The notes under the pieces were generated by a model. It had not been told where the DNA came from and did not search any database. It was given only the letters and a program-made list of their open reading frames with translations. Below are positions 8,065 through 44,033 of a stretch of DNA of 64,000 nucleotides, piece after piece (the first letter of the stretch is position 1; every line of letters starts with the position of its first letter). A program made the translations under genes and the position numbers. Source of the stretch: a virus; IMG/VR virus record IMGVR_UViG_3300030103_002259, positions 19,392 through 83,391 of that record; one strand, written 5' to 3'.

Positions 8065-11000
8065 TTATAATATAAATGGATATACATTACTTGCATAAAC
8101 AAACCCACCATCATCATATACATATCCGCCTTTCTGATTTCCTTGTATTGGAAGATTACCAGCATTAACACCACCATATCCTGGAGGTGTCCCAGAATTA
8201 CTAACAGATGTAGCACTAGCTTGCAACTTCTCTTTCATCTCTATACACTGTTTTATTTCTGCTTCACTAGTTGCACCTTCATTCTGACATTCTGTTTTTA
8301 ATTCACCATAGCTCTTACGAACAGTTGAACGTTTACCAGTCATATCTCTACCACCTTTAAATGCTAAACTACCTCCATCAGCTGGATTAATATCATACTG
8401 CTCATTCAATGCATTAAGATTCTGTTGCTTCTGTCTATTTGTAATAGCATTTGTATACAGATTTCTTAAGTTAGTTCTAGCAGCTAACTTAGCATTATCA
8501 AACTGTTGATTAGCTACAGTGGTTTGATCATACAAGTTCTGACTTATCTGTTGATTAGTAAGTTGTTCTTGATTTCTGATACCAACCTTTTGTTGCTCAT
8601 TAGCATTAGCAGCAGCTATGTTATTTACGTTATACTGATTTAATGTATCTGCAGCTTGTTTAGCAGCTTGACCTTGTATACTAGCAGCTCTTGCAGATTG
8701 AGCCTGTGCTCCAGCAAACTGACTAATTGCTTGCGTTTGTATATTAGCCTGTTCAGCTTGTGCTGCAAGCTCTCTAGTTGGATCAGCATATATAGCATCA
8801 GGTTCTTCAAGATCTACTCTTGGCGCCCAAGGCATATATTTTTTAATACCCATTAAATCACCAAAGGCTCCAGTAGTTTTAATTGTATCTTGTAGCCACC
8901 ATGGAGCTGGTTCATCTTCTACAAGTATATTTTCATTCTCTTCACATGGTAAACAATCACCTGTTGCAGGGTCCACACCTACATCTATTATACTACCATC
9001 TTTTTTCTCACATGGACATTTCTTTTTATCCTCTTTAGGATCACATGGACATTTACCATTCTCATCTTTTTCCATATAGAAATCACCATTAGGATCATCA
9101 CATTGACAACCATAATCTACACTAGTTGATTTTATACCTGTAAGTTCTCCAGCAGTAGTGTTACCATATACACTTGCATATCTATTACTACCACGCCCAT
9201 TTGGATCTAATTCTTCAGGCTGTACTATACCATCACCATCTAAATCTAAACTTTCAAAATCATCTATAGGAGATACATTAGTACCAAGATAACCTCTCAT
9301 TCCAGTTTCATCTGGATCACCCTCTTGTTGTTGACCCATAAAGTTTCTAATAGCAAATTGTGTATCTGCATCATAACTACTTGCATTATTCATCATATTA
9401 GCATATGCATGAAAACCTGCTTGTTGAGCCGCTCTACTATTTTTACCATCACCTAGTTCACCGCTTCCAGAACCCATTTCTAAAGGTTCACCTATAGCAG
9501 TTGCTATTTGACCTAAAGAAATATTATTAGGATTTACTAAATCACCATTTCTATCACGTCTACCATATTCTTCAGCTATAAACTTTTTAGCTGAATTAAA
9601 TTCTGTTTGAGTAGTTATAGGTGTACCTGTTTCAGGATTTACTATATCCATACCAGAATTTATACGAGCCTCTACATCAGGCCAACTTCTAAAACCTTTA
9701 CCACTATTACTAAATAATACAGGATCAATTTGTTTAGCTTTAAACATCAAGTTCCTTTTCTGCATCTTCATGAACTGTTCAATTCTTTCATCTGGGTTAA
9801 AAGCTCTTAATGATGCTTCATTTGCTGTTTTAGCAGCAGCATTTCTATAACCACGAACATCTGATATTGAATTTTCGTATTCTTTATTAAATTGATCTCT
9901 AATCTTAGGGTCTTTAAAACCTTCTTTTAAAAGATAATATTGAATAGCAGCCGCTTTACCAGAAGGAGTTGTGCCAAAATCAGTACCCATAGTTTCTTCA
10001 TCATAATCAGGAGTAACCCCTGTTTGATATTTACCTATACTTTTGGTACCATCAGCATTAACTCTAATAATTTTTTTTCCGTCTTGATTTGCTTGCCAAG
10101 CTTTTCTTTCATAATCAGGATCATTAACATTAATTTCTACACCATTCTGTGCTTTAGGTATAGATCTACCTACAGAAGCTTTAGGTGTATCATAAAATGG
10201 CATATCATAACCACCCATCATCATACCATACATAGCCATAGGCATACCACCATATTGTTTCTCTGATATTTTTGGCGCATCTATACCATATTGTTCTAAT
10301 CCTTGATAAAATAAATCTAAATCATTAGACCACTCAGTATTATGAGGACCTTCTGTTAAACCTTCTTCCATTAACCTCACAATACCTTGTAAGTGATCGG
10401 GATTATTATAATCTTTTACCAGACAATCTAAGCAAAACTTAAATGTGCCATCAGCATTCATCATATCAGGATCCTGATTCCACATGTCAGGATTATTTAT
10501 AAAGTAATCATACTCTCCTCTAGCATAATCATAAAAACTTTGTGGCTCATCTTGAACTTCAGCTTGTTGTACATCAATGCCATTTTGAGCTCTTAAAATT
10601 CTTCCACCAAAAGACATTGATGGTTGTGCAACAGGAGCTTGATTCATTTCTTCTGCTTCAGCAACATCTTCACTCATCTCACCATCTTCTCCACCACCTT
10701 CTTTTTCTTCAACCTTTTTTGTTAATTGTTGATTTACTGCTTTTAACTGAGGGTTAACAATATCAGCCTCCTCAATATTATAGATTTTTGCAGCGGGCTG
10801 TGCAACAGCAGGTAAACCTTGCGGCATACCTTTCATAGACTCTTGTACTAAAGCTAATTCAGCTAGTTTAAGATTATAATTCTTAATCATTAACTCAGCT
10901 GTTTTTCTTGATAACTGATCTGAATCAGGATCTTCTAAAATTTTTCTATACTTATTAATATCATATTGTTTAGCAATCTTAGCAGGAGTTAAAGATTTTT

Positions 11001-11373
11001 TTTCATTCTTACCAAAACGTTTTAAAAGTTTTGGGTCTTTTACTTTCATTGATCTAGTATCACTATAGATAAAAGTATCATCTGGTAAGCTTAAAGGAAC
11101 ACCACCACTACTATGGCGTGGACCTTTTATTATTTTATGTTCTGGAATACCATCACCATTCAAATCACCAAGTACAGTTTCACCACCTTCAGCCTCAACA
11201 TTAGCCTCATCTCTAGGTACACTAGTTATAAACTTACTTAAACTTAATGCAGGCTGTTGCATAGACTGAGTACTTCGCCCACCCATTGCAGCATTATCAT
11301 TATACAAGCTATAATCTACTTGTTGTCCGACTTTAGCTTTAGGTAATCTTTTTATTCTTACTCTTCTTTTCAT
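8065..11373 (-). CDS. Putative cargo protein with NVEAEGGE...GPRHSSGGV domain, EF-hand-like loop and Gln/Ala coiled coil
   Basis: 1102 aa. Has an EAEGGE and G-x-x-H-x-x-GGV segment of the kind seen in crAss-like cargo proteins, a DLDGDGIVQPEE loop, a Cys cluster and several xQxGG/PKAQxG motifs. Confidence 0.6.
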   Translation of the reverse strand: MKRRVRIKRLPKAKVGQQVDYSLYNDNAAMGGRSTQSMQQPALSLSKFITSVPRDEANVEAEGGETVLGDLNGDGIPEHKIIKGPRHSSGGVPLSLPDDTFIYSDTRSMKVKDPKLLKRFGKNEKKSLTPAKIAKQYDINKYRKILEDPDSDQLSRKTAELMIKNYNLKLAELALVQESMKGMPQGLPAVAQPAAKIYNIEEADIVNPQLKAVNQQLTKKVEEKEGGGEDGEMSEDVAEAEEMNQAPVAQPSMSFGGRILRAQNGIDVQQAEVQDEPQSFYDYARGEYDYFINNPDMWNQDPDMMNADGTFKFCLDCLVKDYNNPDHLQGIVRLMEEGLTEGPHNTEWSNDLDLFYQGLEQYGIDAPKISEKQYGGMPMAMYGMMMGGYDMPFYDTPKASVGRSIPKAQNGVEINVNDPDYERKAWQANQDGKKIIRVNADGTKSIGKYQTGVTPDYDEETMGTDFGTTPSGKAAAIQYYLLKEGFKDPKIRDQFNKEYENSISDVRGYRNAAAKTANEASLRAFNPDERIEQFMKMQKRNLMFKAKQIDPVLFSNSGKGFRSWPDVEARINSGMDIVNPETGTPITTQTEFNSAKKFIAEEYGRRDRNGDLVNPNNISLGQIATAIGEPLEMGSGSGELGDGKNSRAAQQAGFHAYANMMNNASSYDADTQFAIRNFMGQQQEGDPDETGMRGYLGTNVSPIDDFESLDLDGDGIVQPEELDPNGRGSNRYASVYGNTTAGELTGIKSTSVDYGCQCDDPNGDFYMEKDENGKCPCDPKEDKKKCPCEKKDGSIIDVGVDPATGDCLPCEENENILVEDEPAPWWLQDTIKTTGAFGDLMGIKKYMPWAPRVDLEEPDAIYADPTRELAAQAEQANIQTQAISQFAGAQAQSARAASIQGQAAKQAADTLNQYNVNNIAAANANEQQKVGIRNQEQLTNQQISQNLYDQTTVANQQFDNAKLAARTNLRNLYTNAITNRQKQQNLNALNEQYDINPADGGSLAFKGGRDMTGKRSTVRKSYGELKTECQNEGATSEAEIKQCIEMKEKLQASATSVSNSGTPPGYGGVNAGNLPIQGNQKGGYVYDDGGFVYASNVYPFIL

Positions 11374-11374
11374 A

Positions 11375-22400: not shown

Positions 22401-23820
22401 TTGCACCCAGAGTCCTATTAACACCATCAAAATTTAAAACCCTTCTTGCACCACGTTCATTATCAGGATCAAACACAGAACCTAATTTATCCATTCCACC
22501 TGTTAGCCAATTATCATCTGGTAAATAAGGTTGAAGTTTATTTGAATCTATAAATTGAGCACCAAATCCATGTTGAAGCAAATTACTTATATTCTCTTGA
22601 GTAGTTTTATTTTGATGTAAACCAAGCTGTAAAGGGTTTGTATAATCAAAAAGTTTAAAAGGAACATCTGAAACACTAGTAATTACATCAGGGTTAAGTA
22701 TAACTAGCTCGTTACCACCTATATCTATTACACCATCTATTCCATATTTAGATCTTAATGTTGCTGCCTTTTGTGGAGTCATCCCCATATGCCCACCAAT
22801 ATGCGGACCTGTTGAACGTTCAATAAAATGTACACCAACATCTCTAAGTGCATTAAGAACATACGGATTATTACCACCAACCAACCTAGCATTAGGAGAA
22901 ACTCCTATTTCTTTTATTCTTCCAAGATCAGCTGGTCTACTAGAAGGATCCCTCAGAAGTTTACTTATAGCAAATTCTGTAGGAAGATCATATTTTAGTG
23001 AAGCTTGAGCACCTTGATTTTTATTAAGACCTCCAAAAAAACCATACTCTGTCAATGAATTACCAGGTTTAGTACCAGTTGATGTCCAATCTTTAAATCC
23101 TTTAGGGTCTATTTTTGAACGATCAAATTCAAGATCTTCTAAAGTAAAACCTGGACTTGTTGAACCAACACCGTGATAAAAACTTCCAAGTGGTTCTGTT
23201 AAAAAACCATCATCATCAAATACTAAAGAATCACCCCTTTTTGTTTCAATAACATATGGATTTTCTAAATATTTTTCAATATTTGTTTTAAAAACATCTG
23301 ATGATTGCAGAATCATATCTTGCATGAGAGCTAGTTTTTCCTCTTCTGACTTTCCTAGTATATTAAAACGCCTATCTCTAGTACCACGACTTACATCATC
23401 TGCAGTAATTTCTATTCTATTATCAGTTGTAAGATCAACACCTCTCAATGGAACTTCATATTGACCAGGGTCAAGTTGGTTCTTTAGTAGTCTACCTTGA
23501 CTTTCTTTAATTGCAGATACTATACTAGGTAGCCTTAGTCCATACTTTTTGTAATCTGCAGCGGCCCTTGCTAAAACATCAAGTTCTGCTTTAGATAATA
23601 TCTTTCCACGTCTCAATGCATTTATTCCTTTAAAAGCACCACCACCTTGGAAATATTGAGCATTAGGATTATAAATTCTTCTAGGGCTTGGTTTACTAAA
23701 AAGAGGATTAGGTGCAAATACAGAATTAGTAGCAGATAAACTTTTGCTATATCTTTTAGTTCTGTATTGATCTCTTAGATCTCTATCTATTGCACTTAGT
23801 ACTCTTTTATTATAACTCAT
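19444..23820 (-). CDS. Polyvalent protein with ADP-ribosyltransferase-like modules and an HExxH metallopeptidase-like module
   Basis: 1458 aa. Modules: FYHG..; TYRGS..LFTSTDREVARQYA..VKSAIGNDGMFD..NIY; LHEAAH..PNELHSE; FYRKIG. They are separated by QxGG/LPKAQxG motifs. Confidence 0.65.
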   Translation of the reverse strand: MSYNKRVLSAIDRDLRDQYRTKRYSKSLSATNSVFAPNPLFSKPSPRRIYNPNAQYFQGGGAFKGINALRRGKILSKAELDVLARAAADYKKYGLRLPSIVSAIKESQGRLLKNQLDPGQYEVPLRGVDLTTDNRIEITADDVSRGTRDRRFNILGKSEEEKLALMQDMILQSSDVFKTNIEKYLENPYVIETKRGDSLVFDDDGFLTEPLGSFYHGVGSTSPGFTLEDLEFDRSKIDPKGFKDWTSTGTKPGNSLTEYGFFGGLNKNQGAQASLKYDLPTEFAISKLLRDPSSRPADLGRIKEIGVSPNARLVGGNNPYVLNALRDVGVHFIERSTGPHIGGHMGMTPQKAATLRSKYGIDGVIDIGGNELVILNPDVITSVSDVPFKLFDYTNPLQLGLHQNKTTQENISNLLQHGFGAQFIDSNKLQPYLPDDNWLTGGMDKLGSVFDPDNERGARRVLNFDGVNRTLGAREHFVDLPFSIPFGEKWWKAAEPNLDLIRQRGGPIELELDDEEIQKYVDGGYIVEDLPKAQLGAALAKAAKKLPVKNFKSQIDWGKWNKNIPNNKPLIEEYRAIEYNTKQNDTWMKNADGSLFKGTPEQFVQQQSKNFKKAFPQGAGSTYRGSMKNLEDLHQPLFTSTDREVARQYATLNGKLVGNVNELYYPMSSKSADLDVNYQVWDSLNLSDIDPRLGEQDYSTAKELNDVVKDLRSQFPEGTTTDKIMKYMIENDIDNIKLNNVFDGDPLLYNDFGNVTMINNRPGNRVKSAIGNDGMFDMSNSNIYKSLLPLTLGLPFAFEDKRNKRKKLKDGGLPKAQRGASLSKAINKISKNAKLVKEVQPSIKKLTSKVISNKIDNTKKGLTRAIQDITKGERSFGEVLPLTPSQKKAADLEASLAIQEGVNFNDKWFYEVDPKFGKILREDISDKILDIFEFSGPQNRQDKYFAQEFRGDGSGDFEGLGRLGLGDGLTLDNTLIYSGNTPGLNLENPLVKTRNILRPQGITDILSSKFTDPEKKFLIKNYLQNDTAGVNKSSLNLSVTNPGIGLYRYPSSEITDIALHEAAHTSQGLGMLNRGFGNVLAEFDSGKGYFYPNENTNIGRFFKEVMPDKDWIGSPNELHSELMVVRKRIYDEWTNDKTVKEAFKVDPNTGKTLDIAERDKRISEWALGELRNPSNSTLDGMLEMEGTGVPLNSFFKKGVPKEKKYQALRYLPGLAIPFALPGLMNDNDKPKLQRGGSILKNIGRAIKNPISAPLTAFTKNELTPGSHFYRKIGNKKGLQDLIKQKGAKAPAPILMKSGVTVDTPFFGKGDEPNNNYRGIFAVETDLPNKSKYDWSHHVGGVENYGVAPFDKIDRGLLDKVPLEDLNVYRKKWFSNNYKKLDKDNLEAGLKGAGLQPLLENTFKWGTRGFLADQLFNDGDNTGGDLLGFQKGGVLELGDEVTEDMVEELRKQGYTIEEI

Positions 23821-32095: not shown

Positions 32096-33985
32096 TTAAT
32101 CTCCTATTTTTTGTATAAAGAATTCAAAGTAATCACTAGTAGCTAAGTAACTACTTAAATACTCCCATCTTGGATTAGGTTGACTGGGAGATGAAGGATC
32201 TTCATCATTAATAAACATTCCTAATTTAACTTCTAAAACATCACCATCTTTTAATACAACCCCTAATGCTGTTCCCGATAATGTACATTTTGAAATGGAA
32301 TTATTTGGAGCAAATGAATCATTTGCATATAATTCACAAGATCCTGGTGCAGCTACATTCTGTATAGCTGATATTACAGTAATTCTAGGATTCGCTTTAG
32401 TTAAAGAACTCACTACAACTCTTGCTATATTATTAGAACCCTGAAAAACAGTAGCTCCATTGCTTAAGTCATGTGAGCTAAAAGTTCCTGTATAACTAAT
32501 CATCTCAGCTGAAACTATCACACCAGCAGTAGCTGTTATATCAATAAACATAGTACCATTAGGAAAATTGACCTGTACAAGTCCATCTACATAAGTAGAA
32601 ACACTTGGGGTACCTCCAACTAGTACATTAACACCAGCTGGGGTGTCATTAGATGATAAGTTATCACCACCGTACCAACCTTTACCTGTTCCAAAAAATG
32701 TACCAGAAGTTGCAGGTTCAGGAGCCGCAGGAGAACCAGAAGAAGATGGTATATTACTTGTGACAGGAGCGCTTAAAACAATATTATAACATAGGTTATA
32801 TACACCGCCCATTCCTGCTGGTATTATAAAATTTCCACCAGTTATTATACCACCTGAAAATGTATCATATATATCACTGCCTGCAACACCTGGAAATTTA
32901 AAAGGACCAGGTACACCTTGGCAAAGACTATTAACTGAACCAGAATTAATATACCCATCTTTTATTAAATATAAACCACTAGTAGAGTTAATATTACTAG
33001 CGCCTCCTCCTAGAGTATTAGAACCTGTATTTCTAATTAAAGCTCTAGGTTGATTTATATTTGCAGTAAAGTTATAATTAGGTAAGCCTGTATTTTCAGT
33101 AAATGATATTGTATCACTATCTGTAAATGTTACAGTAGTAATATTTCTAAGATCACAAACTGCTATCCATAAATTCTGTATAGTTTGAGCTAATGTATTG
33201 GGAGCCGATATCCAACCAGTTGGTCCTGGATATGCACTAGACATTGTACCAACAGCTGCGTCATTACCATCTACAATAGAAGCTGAAGCAGCAGTTATAC
33301 AAGATGGATTAAAAACACTTAATAAATCAGATGCGGTTCCAGAAGAACCTAGTATGACATCAATTGTTGCACAATAACCTATTGTAGCATCATTCACTAA
33401 ATTATCTAATACAACATCAATTGGTGCAGTAGGAGAACCTATAATGGTCTCAAAACAACCTGTTGGTATTGGAGGAATAGTAAATGAAGGAGGTGTTGCA
33501 TTTTCTAATGCAGTAACTCTAATATCAATATTAGTTATTTGATCTTGTAAACTAAGAATTTCAGTAACTAAAGAACATACTTTATTTGCAATTGCTTGTA
33601 CATAATCTACAAGCTGCATATTAGTTGTAGTTCCTTCAACAAAACAATCAGCTACTGATACAACACAATCAGGACATCCTGAATCTGTTGTAGGAGTAGA
33701 TGCAGGCACATCTTCTAATTCACATATTCTAGAAATTAATAATTGAATAAGTGCTTCAAAATTTTCTGGAGGACATGCAGCTGAGATACCTAAACAAGTT
33801 AAATCATAACTAGATACATTTGTTTGTTTCATCAATGTACATAACTCAACAGCTAATGCATAAACTACATCAGAAACAGTATCTCCTTTACAAAGCGTAA
33901 TACATTCAATATCAGGTCCTTGCCAAATAACACAGTTACTTGATATAGGAGAACAAGGTTTATTATCTAAATTTAACGGTTTCAT
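32096..33985 (-). CDS. Putative tail fibre/appendage protein (Cys-rich N-terminus, coiled coil, beta-rich C-terminus)
   Basis: CVIWQGPDI.C N-terminus, heptad segment ILSLQDQITNIDIRVTALE, and a Gly/Ser/Thr-rich C-terminal region. Confidence 0.5.
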   Translation of the reverse strand: MKPLNLDNKPCSPISSNCVIWQGPDIECITLCKGDTVSDVVYALAVELCTLMKQTNVSSYDLTCLGISAACPPENFEALIQLLISRICELEDVPASTPTTDSGCPDCVVSVADCFVEGTTTNMQLVDYVQAIANKVCSLVTEILSLQDQITNIDIRVTALENATPPSFTIPPIPTGCFETIIGSPTAPIDVVLDNLVNDATIGYCATIDVILGSSGTASDLLSVFNPSCITAASASIVDGNDAAVGTMSSAYPGPTGWISAPNTLAQTIQNLWIAVCDLRNITTVTFTDSDTISFTENTGLPNYNFTANINQPRALIRNTGSNTLGGGASNINSTSGLYLIKDGYINSGSVNSLCQGVPGPFKFPGVAGSDIYDTFSGGIITGGNFIIPAGMGGVYNLCYNIVLSAPVTSNIPSSSGSPAAPEPATSGTFFGTGKGWYGGDNLSSNDTPAGVNVLVGGTPSVSTYVDGLVQVNFPNGTMFIDITATAGVIVSAEMISYTGTFSSHDLSNGATVFQGSNNIARVVVSSLTKANPRITVISAIQNVAAPGSCELYANDSFAPNNSISKCTLSGTALGVVLKDGDVLEVKLGMFINDEDPSSPSQPNPRWEYLSSYLATSDYFEFFIQKIGD

Positions 33986-34000
33986 ATTTATGTCTAATTA

Positions 34001-34013
34001 TAATATACAAATT
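34001..34013 (-). promoter_or_regulatory. Putative late promoter motif AATTTGTATATTA
   Basis: Motif copy upstream of the 33985 start. Confidence 0.55.
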
Positions 34014-34017
34014 AATT

Positions 34018-36678
34018 TTAACAATTGCAAGTTGTGCAAATGCTTGTATTCCCACATGAACAGGAGGATTTAGATGCACAATTAAAACTAGGATCTCTAA
34101 GAGCTTGCATATCAATTAAAGTCTTTTTTAATATCCAATTTTGTAGCTCATCTGGACAACAATTAGATATACCATATCTTTCTTCTAAAGCTTTTTTATA
34201 CATTATGTCAGCAAACTCACATGTTATTTTATCATACTTATCTGCTGAAAGCACTGGTGTATTATAGCCTGGTTTTACTTTTCTATTATTTTTAAATACT
34301 GGTTGTGGACATTGACCCTCTTGACAATCTCCAAATTTTTCTAAATAAAAAATACCATTATCATATGCTTCCTTTGGTACAACATACTTAACACACATCT
34401 TACCAGTAGTTTCTCCTGGAGGTAGCTTATATGAAAAGAATACATCATCACAATCATAATACTCTACTTGGCCTGTATCATCCTCAGATACATTTGTAAT
34501 TTTAACACATTCACATTTAGCATCTGCTAGAAGACAATCAGGGCAGTCAATATATTCTGAAGCAAATGTAACTGACTCAATCATTCCTGGAGTATCAGTA
34601 GCAGCCACTTGCCAGCATCCAGTACAATTTGATATCTTAATAACCTTACCTTTATAGGCATTTAAATCAGTATCTGTATAAATTATTCTAGATGAATCTT
34701 CACAATCTGTTAATTCAAAATAGTCTGCCTTACATTTTTCACAATCATCAAATGAAGACGTTATTGTAATATCTGTATCTGTAGGTGGATTATATGTAAT
34801 TAACTCTACATAATAACACCCACAATTATCCAATTCTACAACTTTATCTACATGTGTAGATAAATCATTTGTTGTATATAAGATATCTACCGCATTATCA
34901 CAAGAGGTTAGTTTATAAGCAATAGGTCCTATACATTCAGGACAATCATCATATACTTCTAAAACAGTTACATTAGTAGGACAATCTTCACAACCAATAT
35001 TACATACAGTAGAAGCAAGGGTGCGAACAGAACTTGTTGCAGTTCCATCAGGCCATCTACCTGAACCTGGCCAAGGATTTAATAATGGACAATCAGGAAT
35101 ACCACTATTTACTATAGCTAAAGTATCTGAACTAGGAGGCGAAGGATCACCAACTGCTGATAATTTAGTTATATACCAACCGCCTACACCTACAGGATTT
35201 GACCATATAGCATATGTTTCCATGGCACCACCACCTGGTCCAGCTGTAATTTCAAACTCCCAAACCTTTTGATTATTATATACTAATCCATTAAATATTG
35301 CTGTAGTTTGATATACACCGTCTACACGTATATCAACACATAAACAAGAACCATCTATTACTTGCCAGCAACCTTCATACCCATTTAATGTTACTATTTG
35401 ATTTTGTAAAAAGTAAGGGTATAATTCAGATTCTGTATATATTACTTCTTGTGTTTCACAATTAACTAATGCAAAACATTCTATAGGGCATTCATCATCT
35501 ATACAATTTGAACCCTGATTAATAATAAACGAAGCACCTGGGGAGACAGCACCAATTGAAGGATATATACTAGAACAGAATTTACCAGGCCCCATTTGAT
35601 TAGTTACTAGATTACCATTACAATCTACATATGTAACGATACCAACTCCTGATCCTGTACCAATACCAGACTGTCCTTTAAACCCACTAGGTACAATACT
35701 TGGACTTATAGAACCAACATTTGAAGAACCTGTACTAACAATTTCATAGCATTTACAATCACAGGGAGCAGGTTTTACAGGATCTACTGAAATAGTAGCT
35801 ACAGCATTAACACACGATTCTGATGGACCTACATACCAAGTTCCAGCCATAGGCGTTCCTAAGTCATTATCTATAAGTGTTACAAATTCACCAATATAGT
35901 TAGATATATCATCTACACCATATTGATTTATATCTGATAAAACTTGAAATGTATTACCATCACAATCATATACAGTATAACAAAACTGTGGACATCCTAG
36001 ACAAGCATCAACTACAGCCTGACTATCACAATCTAAACCTGAAGTTGCTGTAGTAACTTGAGTAAAAGTTATACCCTCAGCATAAGCAGGAGCTGCACTT
36101 AAGCTATTATATTCAGTTTCAGGTATATCTTGTACCACAGTTACTGTATAACAACTACCAAACTCTATATTCTGGATATAAGATGGTGACCCTACTGATA
36201 TAAGACTTTGATTTATTTGACCTTGGAGATTGCTTAAACCACCTGTATAAAATATAGGTATAATTATTCCTAAATAATCTTGGTAATTATCCCCGCGAAA
36301 CTCAAGTGTATCATATTGCTCACAACATGGAGTAAAAACAAGTTTATTAAAACCAGGACTACAATCAGAACATGCAGCATCTTGGCAATCTACAACTGGA
36401 GTAAATACAGAATAATCAAGATCAGCAGTAAGACCAAAAAAACCATTTCCAGTAACTGTAAATGTATAGCAATCCCCTGTTATAAACTCTACTATATTAC
36501 CATTATTATCCGTTAATGTTTGGTTTGCACCAGTATATACAAATACCTCAGAACCTGGTAAAGGAGGTGTTAATGAACCAATACCACCTGTTGCAGGATC
36601 TACACTAACTAATAATGTACCTGTTTCACCACTATTACAACATCTAGTGATTTCTATATATGGTATTGTGTTAGCCAT
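34018..36678 (-). CDS. Cys-rich repeat structural protein, 886 aa
   Basis: Repeated [YF]-x-L-x-x-C...IYT...GC[WY]xV...[FY]xDCxxC units. Confidence 0.6.
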   Translation of the reverse strand: MANTIPYIEITRCCNSGETGTLLVSVDPATGGIGSLTPPLPGSEVFVYTGANQTLTDNNGNIVEFITGDCYTFTVTGNGFFGLTADLDYSVFTPVVDCQDAACSDCSPGFNKLVFTPCCEQYDTLEFRGDNYQDYLGIIIPIFYTGGLSNLQGQINQSLISVGSPSYIQNIEFGSCYTVTVVQDIPETEYNSLSAAPAYAEGITFTQVTTATSGLDCDSQAVVDACLGCPQFCYTVYDCDGNTFQVLSDINQYGVDDISNYIGEFVTLIDNDLGTPMAGTWYVGPSESCVNAVATISVDPVKPAPCDCKCYEIVSTGSSNVGSISPSIVPSGFKGQSGIGTGSGVGIVTYVDCNGNLVTNQMGPGKFCSSIYPSIGAVSPGASFIINQGSNCIDDECPIECFALVNCETQEVIYTESELYPYFLQNQIVTLNGYEGCWQVIDGSCLCVDIRVDGVYQTTAIFNGLVYNNQKVWEFEITAGPGGGAMETYAIWSNPVGVGGWYITKLSAVGDPSPPSSDTLAIVNSGIPDCPLLNPWPGSGRWPDGTATSSVRTLASTVCNIGCEDCPTNVTVLEVYDDCPECIGPIAYKLTSCDNAVDILYTTNDLSTHVDKVVELDNCGCYYVELITYNPPTDTDITITSSFDDCEKCKADYFELTDCEDSSRIIYTDTDLNAYKGKVIKISNCTGCWQVAATDTPGMIESVTFASEYIDCPDCLLADAKCECVKITNVSEDDTGQVEYYDCDDVFFSYKLPPGETTGKMCVKYVVPKEAYDNGIFYLEKFGDCQEGQCPQPVFKNNRKVKPGYNTPVLSADKYDKITCEFADIMYKKALEERYGISNCCPDELQNWILKKTLIDMQALRDPSFNCASKSSCSCGNTSICTTCNC

Positions 36679-38964: not shown

Positions 38965-38987
38965 TAATATACTATAATATACTAAAA
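38965..38987 (-). promoter_or_regulatory. Tandem putative late promoter motifs (TAGTATATTA twice)
   Basis: Two adjacent copies upstream of the auxiliary capsid gene. Confidence 0.6.
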
Positions 38988-39012
38988 GTTTTTTAATTAA
39001 TCAAACCTAAGA

Positions 39013-39711
39013 TTAATTATTTCTTTCAGCCTCTTGCTGACCTCTAGAATACTGATTTCCAGATTCTATATCTCCAGCTATTATACTTACAGCTTCGTCA
39101 ATAATTAATTCTACAATGTCATCTTTAAACTCAGAAGTAACATCTGTAGTAGATTCAACTTCAGTATATGGATTTATACAACCTTTAACTTGAATTAATC
39201 TAGGCTGTCTATAGTAAGTAAGTTCTGATTTAGATATTTCAAAGTCTGCGTTAGTATAAATGTTTATACCATCATCAGTTAAAGTAGCAAATGTTTCCGC
39301 CCAAGAAAAACTAGGTTGTTTAGATTTATCTCTCAAAAGCTGATTAAGATTTTCTTCTTCTGCTAAATAGACAGTCATTCTTCTATTTTCACAACAACCT
39401 TTACATGCGTTAACATCAAGCCTTTTCCACTGTAAATAATCTTTAGGTACAGGACCTCTATAATAAATATCTTCTTCTTGAAGTAAAATTGGATCCTGAA
39501 CTAATATAACCTGAAGATCATCTTTTCTTCTGGTAGATTGCTCATCACCTTCTCTTAATGTATTAATACCATGCAGCTGTCTTCTGCACCACTCTACTTG
39601 AGCTTTGTTAAAAGCCTCAACTATTTGCCAGCACAAAACATTATCATAATCTTGACTATCAAGTTTATTGAGCCTTTCTTTAATTTTTATTGTAAGTGTG
39701 CTATTTAACAT
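39013..39711 (-). CDS. Tail ring / head-tail connector protein
   Basis: LNKLDSQ...FNKAQ, LTYYRQP and ELIIDEAV motifs typical of crAss ring proteins. Confidence 0.65.
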   Translation of the reverse strand: MLNSTLTIKIKERLNKLDSQDYDNVLCWQIVEAFNKAQVEWCRRQLHGINTLREGDEQSTRRKDDLQVILVQDPILLQEEDIYYRGPVPKDYLQWKRLDVNACKGCCENRRMTVYLAEEENLNQLLRDKSKQPSFSWAETFATLTDDGINIYTNADFEISKSELTYYRQPRLIQVKGCINPYTEVESTTDVTSEFKDDIVELIIDEAVSIIAGDIESGNQYSRGQQEAERNN

Positions 39712-39881
39712 TACTTCTTTTTCTTTCTTTTAGCGGCAATCTTTTTAAAAGTCTTAGCAAGTGTTTTAGCTTTACCTGTACAAGTCTTCTTTGTAATAGG
39801 TGTGCATTTACCTTTAGTACCTCTCTTCTTAATAGAAGCACTAACTTTTTGCATCCACTTTTTATCTTTCTTTTTCGCCAT
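39711..39881 (-). CDS. 56-aa Lys-rich protein (below the ORF-track cutoff)
   Basis: Translates as MAKKKDKKWMQKVSASIKKRGTKGKCTPITKKTCTGKAKTLAKTFKKIAAKRKKKK*, with a TAATG overlap into the next gene. Confidence 0.8.
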   Translation of the reverse strand: MAKKKDKKWMQKVSASIKKRGTKGKCTPITKKTCTGKAKTLAKTFKKIAAKRKKKK

Positions 39882-39883
39882 AT

Positions 39884-40378
39884 TTAAATTCTTGATCTAT
39901 AGCGTTTTGTTTTACCGTCTCTATATATTTTTTCTTTTCTAACCCCTCTTGTTTTACCTCTATTATTAGTTCTAGATCTTGATGACATTTCTGAACTTGA
40001 AATTAAATTACCAGCTTTATCATACGTCCTAAAGTCATCAGTAATTTTTTCTTTTGATCTTGATCTTGTATTATCTCTTCTATTAGTTCTAGACTTTATA
40101 TTTCTATAATAACTATCATCATTTGTAGTATAACCACCTTTATTTTCACCTGTAAAATTGGTTATTTTAGATTTACCTATACCCGTTCTTGTAAGTTCAG
40201 ATTTTCTTCTAGTACCTCTTCTATTAGTATTACCACTTCTATCTTCAACGGTATTCATCTCTCTATTACTTTCAACTTGACCACTCCAGGTACCTCCTTG
40301 CTGAAGCATAGGTTTTGGCTTTTGTCTAGATTCTCTAAAGAATCTTAAAACTTCTGTAGGGTTAGCTTTATTTTTCAT
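39884..40378 (-). CDS. Arg/Lys-rich protein with LQQGG motif and internal SRTNxRG repeats
   Basis: Likely start is MKNKANP at 40378, downstream of the promoter motif at 40456. RTNRR/RTNNRG-type repeats. Confidence 0.65.
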   Translation of the reverse strand: MKNKANPTEVLRFFRESRQKPKPMLQQGGTWSGQVESNREMNTVEDRSGNTNRRGTRRKSELTRTGIGKSKITNFTGENKGGYTTNDDSYYRNIKSRTNRRDNTRSRSKEKITDDFRTYDKAGNLISSSEMSSRSRTNNRGKTRGVRKEKIYRDGKTKRYRSRI

Positions 40379-40455
40379 AGTTATTTTAATAATCCCAGTA
40401 AATAAAGATTTGATCATTCTCTTCTTCTGGATCTTTAAAAGTTTTGTTCATATAT

Positions 40456-40468
40456 CAATATACAAAAA
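40456..40468 (-). promoter_or_regulatory. Putative promoter motif TTTTTGTATATTG
   Basis: Variant copy in the only sizeable gap of the basic-protein array. Confidence 0.5.
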
Positions 40469-40756
40469 TTAGCAATTCCATTTACGTAGAGATTTGTTAA
40501 TTCTTGAATTAGGATCATTCTTTTTCTTAGATCCTGTCATCTTCTTTTTCATACCTGACATTCTAGCACAAAAACTTTTTCTTCTCTTAGCAGCTTTACT
40601 ATTTTTTTTAAGTTTAGAAGGTTTTGTTGTAACAGCAGTTTTAAGTTTACTTCCAGGGTTAGCCTTTCTGTAAGAAGCAACACCTTTTTTATTTAAGCCA
40701 CCTGACTTACTTTTACCTTCCTTCCTAGTCCAAGCTGGAGTTTTTTTAGTTGCCAT
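40469..40756 (-). CDS. Small basic phage protein (DUF6321-like)
   Basis: PAWTRKEGK..GGLN.KG..SY...RRKSFCARM...DPNSRINKSLRKWNC is a family I recognise from aquatic phages. Confidence 0.7.
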   Translation of the reverse strand: MATKKTPAWTRKEGKSKSGGLNKKGVASYRKANPGSKLKTAVTTKPSKLKKNSKAAKRRKSFCARMSGMKKKMTGSKKKNDPNSRINKSLRKWNC

Positions 40757-40772
40757 AATTTAAAACATTCTT

Positions 40773-41399
40773 TTAAAATCGTAATTTTCTTTTAACTTTA
40801 TTTTTAATTCTTTTTAGTTTAGCTTTAACTTTACCGTTACCGCCAATATTCAAGCCGTTACCACTACGTTTTGGACCAGACATACATTTACCCTTAACTA
40901 CCTTACCACCTCTACAACCACCACCTCTAACTGCAGCACCTCCTAGTTGCATATACTGACCACCTAATTTTTGTTCTTTAATGTCATTAAAATACCCTAG
41001 TACTGCTGCGGGGTTTGTCATATTACCACCCATTTGCATTTTGCTTCTAATTTTTTTAGAATTCTTTTTAAAAGATTCAGTATCAGCCATTTTAGGAGAT
41101 GGACCTAAACCTGACTTTCCATAAACCATTTTTATAGCCTTAGTTTTTATAGGATCCTTTAATGTTTTACGTTTTTTACCCATTGGTCTAGCTATAGACA
41201 TACCCATCTGAGCTTTAGGTAATTTAGGTTTAGTGTGACCATAACCCTTCTTTTTCATACGGGTATGATCAGCCATAACTTTTGCTTTATAACCCTTTCC
41301 TGTTTTAGGATCATACATCATATGAGGTTTAAACTTCTTCTTAGCAGCACTCTTTTTAGCACCACCTTTACTATATAAACTTTTTGGCATTGTATTCAT
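40773..41399 (-). CDS. Lys/Gly-rich basic protein with multiple xQxGG motifs
   Basis: Motifs YSKGG, LPKAQMG, MQMGG, QKLGG and MQLGG, plus a KFKPHMMYDPKTGKG module. Confidence 0.7.
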   Translation of the reverse strand: MNTMPKSLYSKGGAKKSAAKKKFKPHMMYDPKTGKGYKAKVMADHTRMKKKGYGHTKPKLPKAQMGMSIARPMGKKRKTLKDPIKTKAIKMVYGKSGLGPSPKMADTESFKKNSKKIRSKMQMGGNMTNPAAVLGYFNDIKEQKLGGQYMQLGGAAVRGGGCRGGKVVKGKCMSGPKRSGNGLNIGGNGKVKAKLKRIKNKVKRKLRF

Positions 41400-41668
41400 T
41401 ATTTTCTTTTTTTAGTTGTTTTTCTTTTTCTAACTGAACTAGTTCTATTACCCATACCAACTCTTTTCTTTTCAGCAACAACAGAAGCTTTTCTAGAACC
41501 TAAACCGCCCCATGTCACTGGAGTTTTTTTAGAAACTTTTTTGCTAGGTCTACATTTTTTGACGGCTTTATTCTTAGAGGATCCGCACTTATTGCCTTTT
41601 TCATCAGTCCACTTTTCTTTGAACCAACGTTTTAATGCTGCACCTTTAGCTGTCTTTCTAACCGCCAT
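41399..41668 (-). CDS. Small basic phage protein (LKRWFKEKW family)
   Basis: LKRWFKEKW..G.KCG...KCRPSKKVSKKTPVT; DUF5872-like by recollection. Confidence 0.6.
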   Translation of the reverse strand: MAVRKTAKGAALKRWFKEKWTDEKGNKCGSSKNKAVKKCRPSKKVSKKTPVTWGGLGSRKASVVAEKKRVGMGNRTSSVRKRKTTKKRK

Positions 41669-41877
41669 TATCTTTTCTTTTTGCTCTTACCAGCTTTTCT
41701 TTTTCTACACTTAGCAATCATACCACTAGCATAAGCAGAAGGAAATACTTTATGAGCTCTTTTAGCTGCATAGTAACAAGAGTCTTTTTTACTCTTAGTT
41801 TTTTTCTTTTTAGATCCTCCTTTTCTAAAGAATTCTAAAATTTCACCGTCCGTATTTATTCTACTATAATTAGGCAT
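41668..41877 (-). CDS. Small basic phage protein (KDxCY...FPSAYASG family)
   Basis: KDSCYYAAKRAHKVFPSAYASGMIAKCRK; DUF5872-like by recollection. Confidence 0.6.
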   Translation of the reverse strand: MPNYSRINTDGEILEFFRKGGSKKKKTKSKKDSCYYAAKRAHKVFPSAYASGMIAKCRKRKAGKSKKKR

Positions 41878-41879
41878 AA

Positions 41880-42068
41880 CTATAAGCTTCTTCTTAATGA
41901 GGCACCTCTGATAACTTTACCTTTGCCACATGAGCCACCATACTTTAATTGTTGTCCTTGAATAGTTCTTGGATTATTACTATATCTAGCCATAGTCTTA
42001 CCTGGGTAAGGATTTTGACCTCCATTTTTCATTTTGTGGGCACCGCCACATTTCATACATTTTGGCAT
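41880..42068 (-). CDS. Small basic protein with xKxGG motifs and C-terminal SLRRS
   Basis: MKCGG, MKNGG, LKYGG and GASLRRSL. Confidence 0.65.
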   Translation of the reverse strand: MPKCMKCGGAHKMKNGGQNPYPGKTMARYSNNPRTIQGQQLKYGGSCGKGKVIRGASLRRSL

Positions 42069-42078
42069 ATCTTATATT

Positions 42079-42381
42079 TTATTTATTTTTTATACTTCTT
42101 CTTAGTGATCCACCTTTAATTAATTTTGGTTTAGATTTATTACTTGATTTAGGAGATCGTGATACTTCATATAATACTGTACCATAAGGATCTGTCTCTA
42201 AAATCTTATATTGTACGTCTGTGATACCTCTTTTTTTAAGAGCACGTCTTCTTGCATTATAAGCACTTCTACTAGGCGCCACTCTCTTACCCAAAACAGG
42301 TGAATAATCTTTACTTTTCTTAGCCGCTTTCTGAACTGCTTTAGCTATACCACCTTTCTGATATTTTGTAAGGTGTTTCAT
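42079..42381 (-). CDS. Small basic protein, YQKGG...GGSLRRS paralog
   Basis: Starts KYQKGGIAKA and ends KGGSLRRSIKNK. Confidence 0.7.
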   Translation of the reverse strand: MKHLTKYQKGGIAKAVQKAAKKSKDYSPVLGKRVAPSRSAYNARRRALKKRGITDVQYKILETDPYGTVLYEVSRSPKSSNKSKPKLIKGGSLRRSIKNK

Positions 42382-42383
42382 AA

Positions 42384-42764
42384 TTAATGCTTTTTACTTC
42401 GTCTTAATGACCCACCTTTCATCATCTTCATACCACCATACTGAGCATAGCCCATTTTATTACGAACATCTGTTGGTAATGATCTTAGACCATTAAACTT
42501 TTTACCAGCTGGAACACTTTTCAAAGAACCGCCTGATTTAAATTTAGGTTTTTGAAGTTCAGGATACTTCATGCGATTCATATTGTCACCTTTTTTTACG
42601 TCTACCCCAAACATTCCAGGCTTATATACATTCAGTGATTTACGTTTAAGTTTCAAAGAAGCAGGTGTTTTTCCAGCTCTTTTTACCTTTGCAAGTTTTC
42701 CAGTTGTTTTTTTAGCAGCCTTTGCAGCAAGTTTTGCAATACCACCTTTTTGATACTTTTTCAT
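42384..42764 (-). CDS. Small basic protein, YQKGG...GGSLRRS paralog
   Basis: Starts MKKYQKGGIAKL, contains FKSGG and AQYGG, ends KGGSLRRSKKH. Confidence 0.7.
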   Translation of the reverse strand: MKKYQKGGIAKLAAKAAKKTTGKLAKVKRAGKTPASLKLKRKSLNVYKPGMFGVDVKKGDNMNRMKYPELQKPKFKSGGSLKSVPAGKKFNGLRSLPTDVRNKMGYAQYGGMKMMKGGSLRRSKKH

Positions 42765-42766
42765 AG

Positions 42767-43135
42767 TTAATGTTTTCTAGATCTTCTTAAATTTTTACCT
42801 CTGATAACCCCACCTGATCTATATAACTTCATAGTAGGATTATTTTCTAACGCAGCTTTAAACATATCAAGAGCATCTTGATTAGTAATATTAGGATTCT
42901 TTAAAAAACTCTTTACTTTCTTAGCATCACCAGAACTAATTACACCACGTTTTTGCATAGCCTGCCTCAAACCTTCTTTAGCATATTGGTCTGTATCATA
43001 CTTTTTTCCTTTCCTACCTATAGTTGTAGTTCTCTCAGGTAATTTAGGTTTAGGTACTTTAACTTTCTTTTTTGCAGCTTTAGCAGCACTACTTATAATC
43101 TTACCCCTTTGTGCTTTTGGTAAATACTTTTTCAC
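42767..43135 (-). CDS. Small basic protein, LPKAQRG...NLRRS paralog
   Basis: Probable GTG start at 43135 (VKKYLPKAQRG), immediately after the upstream stop. Ends SGGVIRGKNLRRSRKH. Confidence 0.65.
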   Translation of the reverse strand: MKKYLPKAQRGKIISSAAKAAKKKVKVPKPKLPERTTTIGRKGKKYDTDQYAKEGLRQAMQKRGVISSGDAKKVKSFLKNPNITNQDALDMFKAALENNPTMKLYRSGGVIRGKNLRRSRKH

Positions 43136-43136
43136 C

Positions 43137-44033
43137 TTATAAAGATTTTGGAGAGTTATTACCTCTTTTTCTACTTCTGCTAATTTTTCTAACAATTTTT
43201 TTAGCACTCATAGGTCTTCCACCACCTTGGTTTTTCTTAACAACACCTTTTCTAGTTACTCTCTGAGTTAATCCAGATGGAGAAGTTATAGTTCTACCTC
43301 GTTGAGCCTTTGTAAGTTGAGTTCCAGATCTTTTAGAAGGAAGATTTTTTCCACCTGGTATAGGTCTTGTAACTTTAGCTTTACCTTTCCCAGTAGCTTT
43401 TTTTCCTGCTGCTTTTGTTGCTCTTTTAAGATCTTTTTTAGTTCTAGGCATTCCAGGAGGCATCATACTTGTACTTGATTTTTCCTTTTTAAGTGACTTT
43501 CTTAATACTTTTTTCATTCCTGGTGTAAGCTTTCCAATAGAACCACCTTTTTGCATTTTAGTTGTCTTAGCATATTTTTTTACAGCTTTTTTAGCACTAA
43601 CAGGTCTTCCCGCACCTTGATTCTTTTTAGCTACGCCTTTTCTATTTACTTTAGTTTTTAGTCCAGACTTAGAAGTTACAGTTCCGCCTTTTTGCATTCC
43701 AAGGGTAGCAAGTTTTGTAGATGATTTTCTAAGAGGAGATACCTTACCACTAGCTTTAGCTCTACTTTTACCTGAAGCTATTTGTAAAGCTTCATTAAGT
43801 TTTGATCTCATATTAGCTCCAGTTGATCTTAAACCACCTTTAGTTAAGCTTTTTTTAGCAGCAGCAGTGCTTTCCATCTTTCTCCTAATTGGAGCCTTAG
43901 AAGTAGATTTTCTACCTGGAGTACCTTTACCTTTTCCAGCAGCTTTTACAAGCCTTGTCATTTTTGCTAATCCTTTTTGGCCTTTTGGTAATCTTTTTTT
44001 TGCACCACCATAACCATACTTTTTCATTGCCAT
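43137..44033 (-). CDS. Histone-H1-like Lys/Arg/Gly-rich protein with internal duplication
   Basis: 298 aa with very few acidic residues. Duplicated unit T[VI]TSxSGL...RKGV[AV]KKNQG[AG]GRP[VM]SAKK. MQKGG twice, LPKGQKG and KAQRG. Confidence 0.7.
   Translation of the reverse strand: MAMKKYGYGGAKKRLPKGQKGLAKMTRLVKAAGKGKGTPGRKSTSKAPIRRKMESTAAAKKSLTKGGLRSTGANMRSKLNEALQIASGKSRAKASGKVSPLRKSSTKLATLGMQKGGTVTSKSGLKTKVNRKGVAKKNQGAGRPVSAKKAVKKYAKTTKMQKGGSIGKLTPGMKKVLRKSLKKEKSSTSMMPPGMPRTKKDLKRATKAAGKKATGKGKAKVTRPIPGGKNLPSKRSGTQLTKAQRGRTITSPSGLTQRVTRKGVVKKNQGGGRPMSAKKIVRKISRSRKRGNNSPKSL

Follow-up and report, generated by a model that had tools for sequence, protein, structure and literature searches.

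What is the role of a single short peptide that recurs, many times over, in both the large and the small internal proteins of a phage? This question is raised by a 64,000-nucleotide stretch of viral DNA (hereafter the window), which comprises bases 19392–83391 of an 83.4-kb IMG/VR contig (IMGVR_UViG_3300030103_002259; CheckV completeness ~70%) and is coding on the minus strand only. The peptide, phi-[QK]-x-G-G (phi being a hydrophobic residue), and its variant LPKAQxG occur in four large proteins, here termed cargo 1 to 4, whose genes start right after that of a muzzle-like virion protein and are followed by further large genes, and in an array of small Lys/Arg-rich proteins (Table 1). As far as can be predicted from sequence, the peptide is probably a signal either for cutting or for docking. 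The reading preferred here, to which a probability of roughly 45% is given, is that it is a seam, that is, a predicted processing site read by some other factor.

The motif and the proteins that carry it

Enrichment was estimated against shuffles of each protein in which composition was preserved, with the four cargo and ten of the small basic proteins (6600 amino acids, aa) as targets and the 48 other proteins of the contig (20850 aa) for comparison. The strict form [FMYLIVW]Q.GG was found 18 times in the 14 targets, where 0.69 copies were expected (maximum of 4 in 2000 shuffles), and 0 times in the other proteins, where 1.22 were expected. Allowing Lys as well as Gln gave 25 copies against 2.32 expected in the targets and 1 against 2.57 elsewhere, and PKAQ.G was found five times in the targets (0.01 expected) and never in the others (0.02 expected). 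These counts bear out an earlier note on this DNA, which had described the motif as enriched in these genes but not in those for the portal, major capsid protein, terminase and muzzle: every copy that it listed was found in the translations, and there are 0 motifs in the portal, the capsid protein, a 431-aa scaffold-like protein, the terminase and the 1800-aa muzzle-like protein. The 'dozens' of copies that it mentioned are a suitable figure for the loose form Q.G[GA] (31 copies), but not for the strict form, and, whilst it had placed the motif or its variant in all four large proteins, the strict form is present in three; cargo 4 carries IPKAQNG only, its two Q-x-GG sequences being without the hydrophobic residue. 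Most of the small basic proteins do carry the motif, as it had stated (7/11 open reading frames, ORFs).

The Gly codons at the motif vary (GGT, GGA, GGC and GGG), indicating that the signal lies at the level of the protein, with neither a DNA repeat nor a ribosome-binding site behind it; an origin in DNA, be it a Shine-Dalgarno-like GGAGG or a repeated element, was ruled out on these grounds. The extended consensus is P-x-[FMYL]-[QK]-x-G-G-x-[VILT].

The comparison covered ten genomes, consisting of this contig (G000) and nine longer related contigs (G001–G009). In 10/10 of them, phi-[QK]-x-G-G is enriched in the cargo and basic classes, a count in which the cargo proteins of G003 were grouped under 'other', and in the non-target proteins it occurs at or below the shuffle expectation. 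For [FMYL][QK].GG, this genome has 13 copies in cargo and 11 in basic proteins (0.9 and 0.6 expected), and G004 has 4 and 3 (0.5 and 0.2 expected). Relatives of the capsid protein are encoded in at least 595 IMG/VR stretches, and the best 80 of these, in which the capsid protein is 88–95% identical, also encode homologues of the small basic ORFs. In these 80 loci, 190 motifs fall in 301 distinct small basic proteins (5.83 per 1000 aa), with at least one in 102/301, compared with 23 motifs in 935 other proteins (0.079 per 1000 aa). Giant proteins are nearly free of the motif, with a single copy in 26 proteins of at least 1900 aa.

The cultured Cellulophaga phage phi4:1 carries the motif in gp040 (FQAGG, YQNGG, LKSGG, FQIGG, FQSGG and a C-terminal LKWGG-KKR), whose gene is the second after that of the muzzle-like gp042, gp041 being the one in between, and which is annotated as 'virion structural protein' on the basis of tandem mass spectrometry. 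Since phi4:1 is in culture and its virion proteome has been published, the question of what the motif does is directly testable. The motif is a protein-level signal that is confined to the cargo and basic classes and has been kept across a large clade of phages.

The use of Gln or Lys at the motif varies with lineage. The ratio of Gln to Lys is 18:6 in this genome, whereas the nine others taken together have 26:54 (chi-square p = 0.003; Fisher 3e-4), values that have to be read with the sites of one genome being partly paralogous and thus not fully independent. Genomes G004 and G008 use Lys only (0:7 each), and this genome has the lowest overall Gln content of the ten, despite its Gln-rich motifs.

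The small genes after the capsid gene can be recognized from their sequences as encoding basic internal proteins built of cassettes. The copies that they carry are LQQGG, MQMGG, MQLGG, LPKAQMG, YQKGG (twice), FKSGG, LPKAQRG and MQKGG (twice). Two of the ORFs begin MKKYQKGG or MKHLTKYQKGG, three end ...GG/GA-SLRRS..., and tails of the type GG-S-[IV]-K-K are found on the small basic proteins of relatives; the residues following Gly-Gly in basic proteins are S/A, then V/T, then K. A conserved 30-aa module lies between invariant Gly-Gly copies in one alignment of small basic proteins (A4), and a separate 62-aa gene of the window corresponds to the module that, in a relative, is inserted directly behind the Gly-Gly lying before the SLRRS tail. 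The basic helix that the earlier note had placed after the motif is apparent in sequence, but is predicted only at low confidence in one model. Small basic proteins with a Cys-x-x-Cys-GG start and ...YGGSCGK... are encoded at 41880–42068 and in relatives, and possibly form a small metal-binding knuckle. The portals of the Lys-only G004 and G008 end ...NKYDKGG[SE]VKNKK, with the same Gly-Gly and basic tail as many small basic proteins.

Cassettes, seams and terminal tags

The four large genes are identifiable in sequence as modular 'polyvalent' cargo built of exchangeable cassettes. As in polyvalent proteins, unrelated domains (a SET fold and an HExxH cassette) occur in neighboring cargo proteins, and the relatives of cargo 1 (44 proteins besides its own record, P0001) are mosaics; SET, Amidase_2, LysM and SLT are among the enzyme and other cassettes found in relatives of cargo. 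The cargo bodies are almost unalignable among relatives, a related-locus search with cargo 2 found nothing, cargo being too divergent for that search, and a protein atlas search returned weak, unnamed matches only. The position of the genes matches that of the crAss001 and phi14:2 cargo, and delivery to the host with the DNA is predicted on the basis of this synteny.

Cassette boundaries were taken from the ends of BLAST high-scoring segment pairs; related proteins have such ends in common, and the counts below have to be read with this overlap. On cargo 1, the blocks of relatives span aa 1–61/62, 500/508–536/546, 551/556–787/794, 804/807–1238, 1248–1411/1426 and 1428–1458, and the breaks between them fall at FQGGG 57, RQRGG 502/LPKAQLG 530, LKDGG 808/LPKAQRG 813, LQRGG 1232 and FQKGG 1428. 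Four relatives (P0002, P0004, P0006 and P0045) are without cassette 1239–1427, which is excised exactly from motif to motif. In a set of 79 proteins of the cargo type, 148 internal motifs were compared with random positions: at least one homology-block end lies within 6 aa of 69% of the motifs and of 24% of the random positions, and three or more ends lie there in 45% and 9%, respectively, which upholds the claim of the earlier note that the motifs fall at domain boundaries. Distinct block ends within 5 residues of a motif number 108/1564, with 28 expected, meaning that most block ends are not at motifs. At the seams of the fourth block, LQxGG at 1232–1236 and P814, Q817 and G819 are invariant in seven sequences of 31–85% identity, and in the AlphaFold model of cargo 1 aa 800–1245 both seam regions have predicted local distance difference test (pLDDT) values <50 and flank a confident core. 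The same junction is found both fused and split, as would be expected if the covalent link is finally irrelevant, and aa 502–537 of cargo 1 look like a fused gene boundary, judging from the order of the peptides there.

One cassette of cargo 2 is predicted to be a compact SET-fold lysine methyltransferase, its AlphaFold model having pLDDT values of 82–96 and matching MLL1, SET8 and the chlorella-virus vSET in Foldseek at a probability of 1.00. Homology to it spans aa 659–664 to 751–769, between VKDGG at 654–658 and FQKGG at 750–754, and in relatives the cassette starts at residue 4–8 of the protein. The statement of the earlier note that these two motifs bracket the SET domain exactly agrees with the homology ends and, in the model of cargo 2 aa 576–830, with a drop in confidence at FQKGG, as also at FKKGG; VKDGG, however, lies in a confident turn (pLDDT about 80) between a 70-aa mini-module and the SET fold. 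SET cassettes recur in the cargo of G005, G006, G007 and G009 and in many database relatives. A mini-module of ~65 aa (17489–17683, cargo 2 aa 589–653) with the pattern ...IP-x-x-x-ITM-x-x-V...P-x-phi-[QK]-x-GG packs against the SET fold in the model; it is conserved at or near cargo N-termini in G001, G007, G009 and many relatives, and can be made out by eye at the N-terminus of phi4:1 gp040.

Conserved tags, basic at the N-terminus and acidic at the C-terminus, stand beside the motif. Gly-Gly is present 12–40 residues from the C-terminus in 35/35 cargo proteins (shuffle mean 6.6, maximum 14, in 500 shuffles), and the C-tags of the ten genomes are of the types ...GG-x(3-8)-ELGDEVDEAT-x-x-x-L-x-x-LGYTFE-x-I, ...GG-x-x-x-L[ST]-x-KEI-x-x-Y[IV]-x-DGYI[IV]E, ...GG-...-MT-x-EEL-x-x-F[LI]A-x-GG-x-VEYL and ...GG[YF][VI]Y...P[FI][IL]. 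The basic N-tags read MKKYRIT-x-[LI]P-x-x-x-x-GG or M-x-[KR]V[RK]I[KR]-x-[LV]P-[KQ]A[KR]-x-G, and since they contain the [KQ]A[KR]-x-G pattern, LPKAQxG can be assigned to the N-tag as a seam variant inside it. The earlier note had offered as one option that the motif is a shared packaging tag; the idea of conserved tags stands, with the basic N-tag and acidic C-tag as the tags and the motif itself as their seam to the body.

Of all parts of the cargo, only the N-domain of cargo 4 (about aa 1–260) is conserved throughout the ten genomes, at about 50% identity. Its aa ~40–260 hold invariant VPR..AN.EAEGGET and G.RH..GVPL.LP, with only a sub-threshold Pfam match to PBECR3 (RNase-like), and a Met/Tyr/Gly-rich low-complexity stretch with repeated MAYGG-like units follows it.

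Cutting, docking or other possible roles for the seam

If the motif is a processing site, each cassette boundary and each tag–body junction would carry one seam peptide, and this would be read by a separate factor, most likely a protease, that trims the N- and C-tags after loading and separates the cassettes, in the head or after ejection. As the motif stands after N-tags and before C-tags, one specificity could remove both. The shift between Gln and Lys runs in concert over unrelated cassettes, suggesting a factor that acts on all of them, and the starts MKKYQKGG and MKHLTKYQKGG, with nothing upstream that would need a hinge, also support processing. From the proposal of the earlier note that these are polyproteins, a shared protein-level signal at the boundaries of mosaic cassettes can be retained, whilst the named protease families were unmatched at E ≤ 1 in the five genomes searched with each model and cleavage has the standing of a prediction. 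For polyvalent proteins of phages, processing by zincin-like peptidases embedded in them is predicted in the peptidase passages of their description (PMC5512222), and excerpts of a study of crAss-like phages refer to fused RNA-polymerase polyproteins as 'likely cleaved' and to gp65 orthologues with a zincin-like domain (bioRxiv 10.1101/2020.03.07.982082). The N4 polymerase carries HExxH (PMC13434306).

The only protease candidates, as judged from their motifs, are HExxH (zincin-like) domains, none of which is tied to the seam. Candidate readers are HE[AS]WH in an RNA-polymerase-like giant with DFDxD, HEF[AS]H in a gp65-like protein and HEAAH in cargo 1. The first of these is the most widespread, being present in 8/8 genomes that hold the gene. 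In the HEAAH cassette the H, E and H are invariant in seven sequences, as is a downstream NELH, and the AlphaFold model has a mean pLDDT of 53.9, with confidence at aa ~1090–1210; Foldseek gave no match at E ≤ 0.001, and VIA-align gave Z ≤ 4.5, mostly to long helices. With a low-confidence model and no fold match, a zincin fold is neither shown nor excluded for this cassette. Zincins (thermolysin-type enzymes) usually cut before a hydrophobic residue, and if one is the reader the cut would perhaps lie before the hydrophobic residue of the motif and not after Gly-Gly.

A number of observations speak against cutting at the seam. No match at E ≤ 1 was obtained to Peptidase_C48 (Ulp1), Peptidase_C39 or Peptidase_S78 (HK97 type) in the five genomes G000–G004, four of those searched for S78 being at least 90% complete and S77 (T4 type) not being searched, nor to Peptidase_C5 (adenain) in G005–G009, G000 not having been searched with that model. 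Clan CE is thereby without a match, 0/5 genomes showing a hit with C48 and 0/5 with C5, the families of African swine fever virus and poxviruses lying outside the search and divergent members being able to escape the models. MPTase-PolyVal likewise had no match in five genomes, and the HExxH cassette of cargo 1 is without a Pfam match as well as a fold match. From the clan CE, C39 and zincin proteases that the earlier note had suggested looking for, only HExxH candidates came to light. None of them follows the motif in its distribution: the cargo-embedded HExxH occurs in only 4/10 genomes, no gp65-like HEF[AS]H turned up in the 97% complete G003, phi14:2 has a zincin and no motif, and in phi4:1 only gp041 has HExxH among six proteins checked, with gp035 and gp038 lacking it. 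The motif is absent from the capsid, scaffold-like and portal proteins; Pro follows Gly-Gly in 12/141 cargo contexts; and the residue after Gly-Gly in cargo is not biased towards small residues (24%, compared with a background of 26%). Cutting at the terminal copies of small proteins would free only 3–16 residues, and the model has VKDGG in a confident turn. The crAss001 protein C1, which is without the motif, is presented as a single chain that extends from tail to capsid in the sections available of its structural description (PMC10172136).

Other candidates for a protease were looked at within the contig and in one relative. Pfam matches on the remaining window proteins were to an amidase, a PD-(D/E)XK nuclease and a metallophosphatase, with no protease, and on three giants outside the window only to LysM and, weakly, to PD-(D/E)XK. 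The gene between portal and capsid was rejected as a protease, since it encodes an acidic, helical protein of scaffold-like character that matched neither Pfam nor PHROG. Among the 61 non-structural-arm proteins of the complete relative G002, the sole peptidase-like entry in the 25 of 31 Pfam families listed is a 434-aa DUF2201_N/PhageMetallopep protein; this was rejected as the reader, since it is absent from phi4:1, phi14:2 and Lbo-JY46 and so does not track the motif.

The alternative that survives best, although it remains doubtful, is that of an uncut docking or loading peptide, in which the motif, together with what follows it (G-G-S-[LIV]-[KR]-[KR] in basic proteins), would attach to a conserved receptor in the procapsid, such as the capsid interior, portal or scaffold, and load proteins as encapsulin peptides do, with several copies per protein adding avidity. 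No protease is needed for this, consistent with none being found. All carriers of the motif are proteins that one would expect within the particle, its copies are found at either terminus and in flexible regions, and the order of S/A, V/T and K after Gly-Gly in basic proteins would suit a binding peptide, as would a capsid that is 88–95% identical in the 80 loci while cargo bodies diverge, which is how a fixed receptor and a fixed peptide would look. Encapsulin shells and the capsid of this phage share the HK97 lineage, and a short terminal G-S-L-[KR] peptide is present here on putative cargo of an HK97-fold shell. According to excerpts from an account of encapsulins, their loading peptides are short and C-terminal, hold Gly, a small residue, Leu and basic residues, and load an HK97-fold shell; that of M. 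xanthus shares G-S-L-R-R with the GG/GA-SLRRS tails of three small proteins, and that of T. maritima contains GG-D-L-G-I-R-K (PMC11190991). The identity of five residues to one encapsulin peptide is, however, possibly due to chance, and encapsulin peptides are terminal and usually single, whereas the copies here, for which binding is a prediction, are also internal between all cassettes, where loading would not need them. The residues after Gly-Gly in cargo are not of the S-[LIV]-K type, and the position of Gly-Gly before the C-tag in 35/35 cargo proteins and after N-tags is more that of a separator than of a tag. The receptor is hypothetical; a prediction of the complex of the capsid (48-row alignment) with a 126-aa basic protein (11-row alignment), run without controls, gave a score of 0.00 and a mark of 0.32, values that bear on binding in neither direction.

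It is unlikely that the motif acts as a passive hinge or has simply been left behind by the exchange of cassettes, that is, as a flexible Gly-Gly joint for unfolding and threading through the tail, at which recombination keeps the junction peptides. The cassettes are clearly shuffled at the seams, these lie in low-confidence and probably flexible stretches of the models, and extrusion of the crAss001 cargo is believed to take place in a partly unfolded state, according to part of the same structural description (PMC10172136). A hinge would, however, have no need of hydrophobic-[QK] two to three residues before Gly-Gly, of Pro farther upstream or of a branched residue after it, and would not account for Gln and Lys shifting in concert within genomes or for motifs that open small one-module proteins or stand close to their C-terminus; the codons vary between copies, and a stretch of five residues is not long enough for homologous exchange. 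A site of modification, either Lys methylation by the packaged SET enzyme at a histone-tail-like K-x-G-G or Gln-Lys cross-linking, is highly improbable, since, for all that cargo 2 has a SET-fold cassette and the small proteins are histone-like in composition, the SET-bearing genome has mostly Gln at the position (18:6), the Lys-only G004 and G008 gave no SET match by BLAST, Lys-type genomes are unable to donate Gln for cross-links, and the motif also occurs in acidic contexts of cargo. Chance or an artefact of composition can be dismissed, for although the target set was picked after the motif had been seen and basic proteins are Lys- and Gly-rich, composition-preserving shuffles gave 0.69 where 18 were observed, and the pattern recurred in the other nine genomes, in 80 loci and in phi4:1, the motif being invariant in alignments.

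Known systems and genome context

Taken further, the reading of the seam as a processing site leads to a tentative picture in which a crAss-related clade without a recognizable head protease would mature its contents in the style of adenovirus: a packaged putative protease, perhaps one of the HExxH domains in the giants, would read a Gly-Gly seam code, cut strings of effectors and trim histone-like core proteins, with the tags as removable loading handles. If seams are cut, they would supply a sequence rule by which the mature forms of hundreds of hypervariable cargo proteins in phages could be predicted, with their limits and the enzymes released, and a processing system would exist in a phage lineage without the usual head protease. 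If they dock, they would amount to a natural label by which foreign proteins could be directed into the head of a phage. In either case, internal virion proteins would become recognizable from sequence alone by the motif. No Gly-Gly seam or cut site in phage cargo was found described in the literature searched, supplements aside. What is added here is how widely the motif is spread in the clade, together with the tag-seam-body architecture, the lineage shift between Gln and Lys, the case of gp040 in the cultured phi4:1 and the comparison with a site in T5 (below).

In T4 and phiKZ, numerous internal proteins of the head have a short motif in common, with N-terminal tags being lost and ejection proteins being cleaved inside the head; the head-protease motifs of these phages end in Glu and are also found on capsid and scaffold, and a protease gene of the S77/S78 type lies in the head module. 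In this clade, by contrast with these phages and with SPN3US, the motif ends in Gly-Gly and is absent from the capsid, scaffold-like and portal proteins, and there is no S78 match in G000–G004. For SPN3US, processing of internal and ejection proteins by a head protease is reported in the portions available of two studies (PMC5694885, PMC7411985). Maturation by the adenovirus AVP resembles what is proposed here in that, in the extracts at hand, basic DNA-bound core precursors, along with further internal proteins, are trimmed at short Gly-containing sites (IVGL|G) and a released basic C-terminal peptide has its own role (PMC4246237); it differs in belonging to another lineage, and the hydrophobic residue here is five, not four, positions before the end of Gly-Gly. 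The tape-measure protein pb2 of T5 is stored in the tail lumen, ejected and cut after R1127, beside Gly-Gly, which separates an enzymatic domain, as far as the accessible text relates (PMC10038345). The T5 site, VPR|AEGG, resembles phi-P-[KR]-A-[QE]-x-G and hence the LP-K-A-Q-x-G variant, and hints by analogy that any cut here could lie before the hydrophobic or Ala position; it is, however, a single site, cut three residues before Gly-Gly, and the match is of about four of seven positions and may be due to chance.

Polyvalent proteins are alike in being large, virion-delivered strings of unrelated enzyme domains with extensive mosaicism, embedded HExxH peptidases and predicted processing; the word 'linker' is absent from the text at hand of their description, and its passages on cleavage and peptidases mention no junction peptide (PMC5512222). 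The cassettes of this clade differ from them in being bounded by one peptide that is common to small basic proteins. The closest counterparts by gene position are the C1 (gp45) and C2 (gp46) proteins of crAss001, in the available part of their description (PMC10172136), and g068–g070 of phi14:2, which are encoded after ring and muzzle genes and before RNA-polymerase giants, and are packed in the virion and presumed to be injected. Unlike the cargo here, these proteins of true crassviruses have 0 phi-[QK]-x-GG, no small basic array is present at this position in crAss001 as far as examined, and cleave, proteolysis and protease are not among the words of the crAss001 paper (PMC10172136). The crAss001 C1 cargo protein gp45 has a basic start followed by ...PPNIFDTGG, and ...KAKGGKVRTKKKK near its C-terminus; these ends loosely recall the N-tag and the Gly-Gly basic tail of the clade, the strict motif being absent.

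Features of a crAss-like virion module are present in the CrAss_Ring_1 match, the match to PHROG 37948, DFDID in the 3249-aa protein and the homology to gp65, and three giant genes lie on the contig outside the window. By capsid protein, the nearest cultured relatives are distant and consist of the Leptolyngbya phage Lbo-JY46 (28% identity) and the Cellulophaga phages phi4:1 and phi17:2.

Table 1. Positions of the cargo, seams, tags and other virion genes, in window coordinates or, for proteins outside the window, in contig coordinates.
Feature	Position	Strand	Basis or remark
Terminase-like gene	highest coordinates in gene order, before portal	-	gene order
Portal	48196-50946	-	PHROG 6547, 2e-94
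431-aa acidic, helical, scaffold-like gene	between portal and major capsid protein	-	no seam motif
Major capsid protein, 537 aa	45161..46774	-	PHROG 11589 'major head protein'; 0 motifs
338-aa gene	between capsid gene and small basic genes	-	gene order
11 small Lys/Arg-rich ORFs, 56-298 aa, 21-43% K+R	39711..44033	-	phi-[QK]-x-GG or PK[AG]QxG in 7/11
Conserved virion genes	between small basic array and ring gene	-	gene order
Ring gene	29224-30252	-	Pfam CrAss_Ring_1, 7.2e-11
Muzzle-like virion protein, 1800 aa	23820..29222	-	PHROG 37948, 5.3e-48; 0 motifs
Cargo 1, 1458 aa	19444..23820	-	first gene after muzzle-like gene
Cargo 1 seams	FQGGG 57, RQRGG 502, LPKAQLG 530, LKDGG 808, LPKAQRG 813, LQRGG 1232, FQKGG 1428	-	translation
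Cargo 1 N-terminal 61-aa mini-module, ends FQGGG	23638..23820	-	internal (640-725) in P0017, P0022, P0023
Cargo 1 internal junction, aa 502-537: RQRGG, acidic C-tag-like peptide, LPKAQLG	22210..22317	-	blocks 500/508-536/546
HEAAH, cargo 1 aa 1060-1064, in cassette 807-1238	20629..20643	-	only protease-like motif in window
Cargo 1 C-tag: FQKGG + 26-aa acidic helix-strand peptide	19447..19539	-	independent block 1428-1458
Cargo 2, 1451 aa	15092..19447	-	Pfam SET match
Cargo 2 N-tag: MKKYRITALPRMQNGG, basic strand, then LP-x-x-Q-x-GG	19400..19447	-	cargo starts compared
Cargo 2 seams	MQNGG 12, FKKGG 584, VKDGG 654, FQKGG 750, LPKGQAG 791, FQKGG 1423	-	translation
SET cassette, cargo 2 aa 659-749, between VKDGG and FQKGG	17201..17473	-	Pfam SET 9.5e-06
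Cargo 2 C-tag: FQKGG + 24-aa acidic peptide	15095..15181	-	cargo ends compared
Cargo 3, 1219 aa	11375..15034	-	FQMGG 28, MQQGG 156, LQEGG 287, MQSGG 995, MQEGG 1184
Cargo 3 further copies	KQEGG 355 and 806, AQRGG 818	-	translation
Cargo 3 C-tag: MQEGG + 31-aa acidic peptide	11378..11485	-	cargo ends compared
Cargo 4, 1102 aa	8065..11373	-	IPKAQNG 405, QYGG 373, NQKGG 1079
Cargo 4 C-tag: NQKGG + 19 aa ending ...YPFIL	8068..8139	-	type conserved in 10/10 genomes
gp65-like 1980-aa protein, HEFAH + LysM	contig C1:579-6521, outside window		phmmer 1.8e-19 to phi14:2 gp65
3249-aa protein, DFDID (RNA-polymerase motif) + HEAWH	contig C1:6525-16274, outside window		motif reading
2445-aa protein, weak PD-(D/E)XK match + DFDVD	reaches window 3-4223

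Upstream of the terminase-like gene are genes for a PD-(D/E)XK nuclease (53675–54559), an Amidase_3 endolysin (55917–56615) and a calcineurin-like phosphoesterase (57765–58658). Two virion proteins of 629 and 886 aa, encoded within 32096–36678, have Cys-rich N-termini that are conserved across the clade; the C-terminus of the 886-aa protein is also Cys-rich and conserved across the clade, whereas that of the 629-aa protein is not Cys-rich. In the non-structural arm of G002, Pfam matches include ATE_C (the C-terminal domain of arginyl-tRNA-protein transferase, 1.6e-06), a spore-photoproduct-lyase-like protein and the C-terminal domain of the RNA polymerase alpha subunit.

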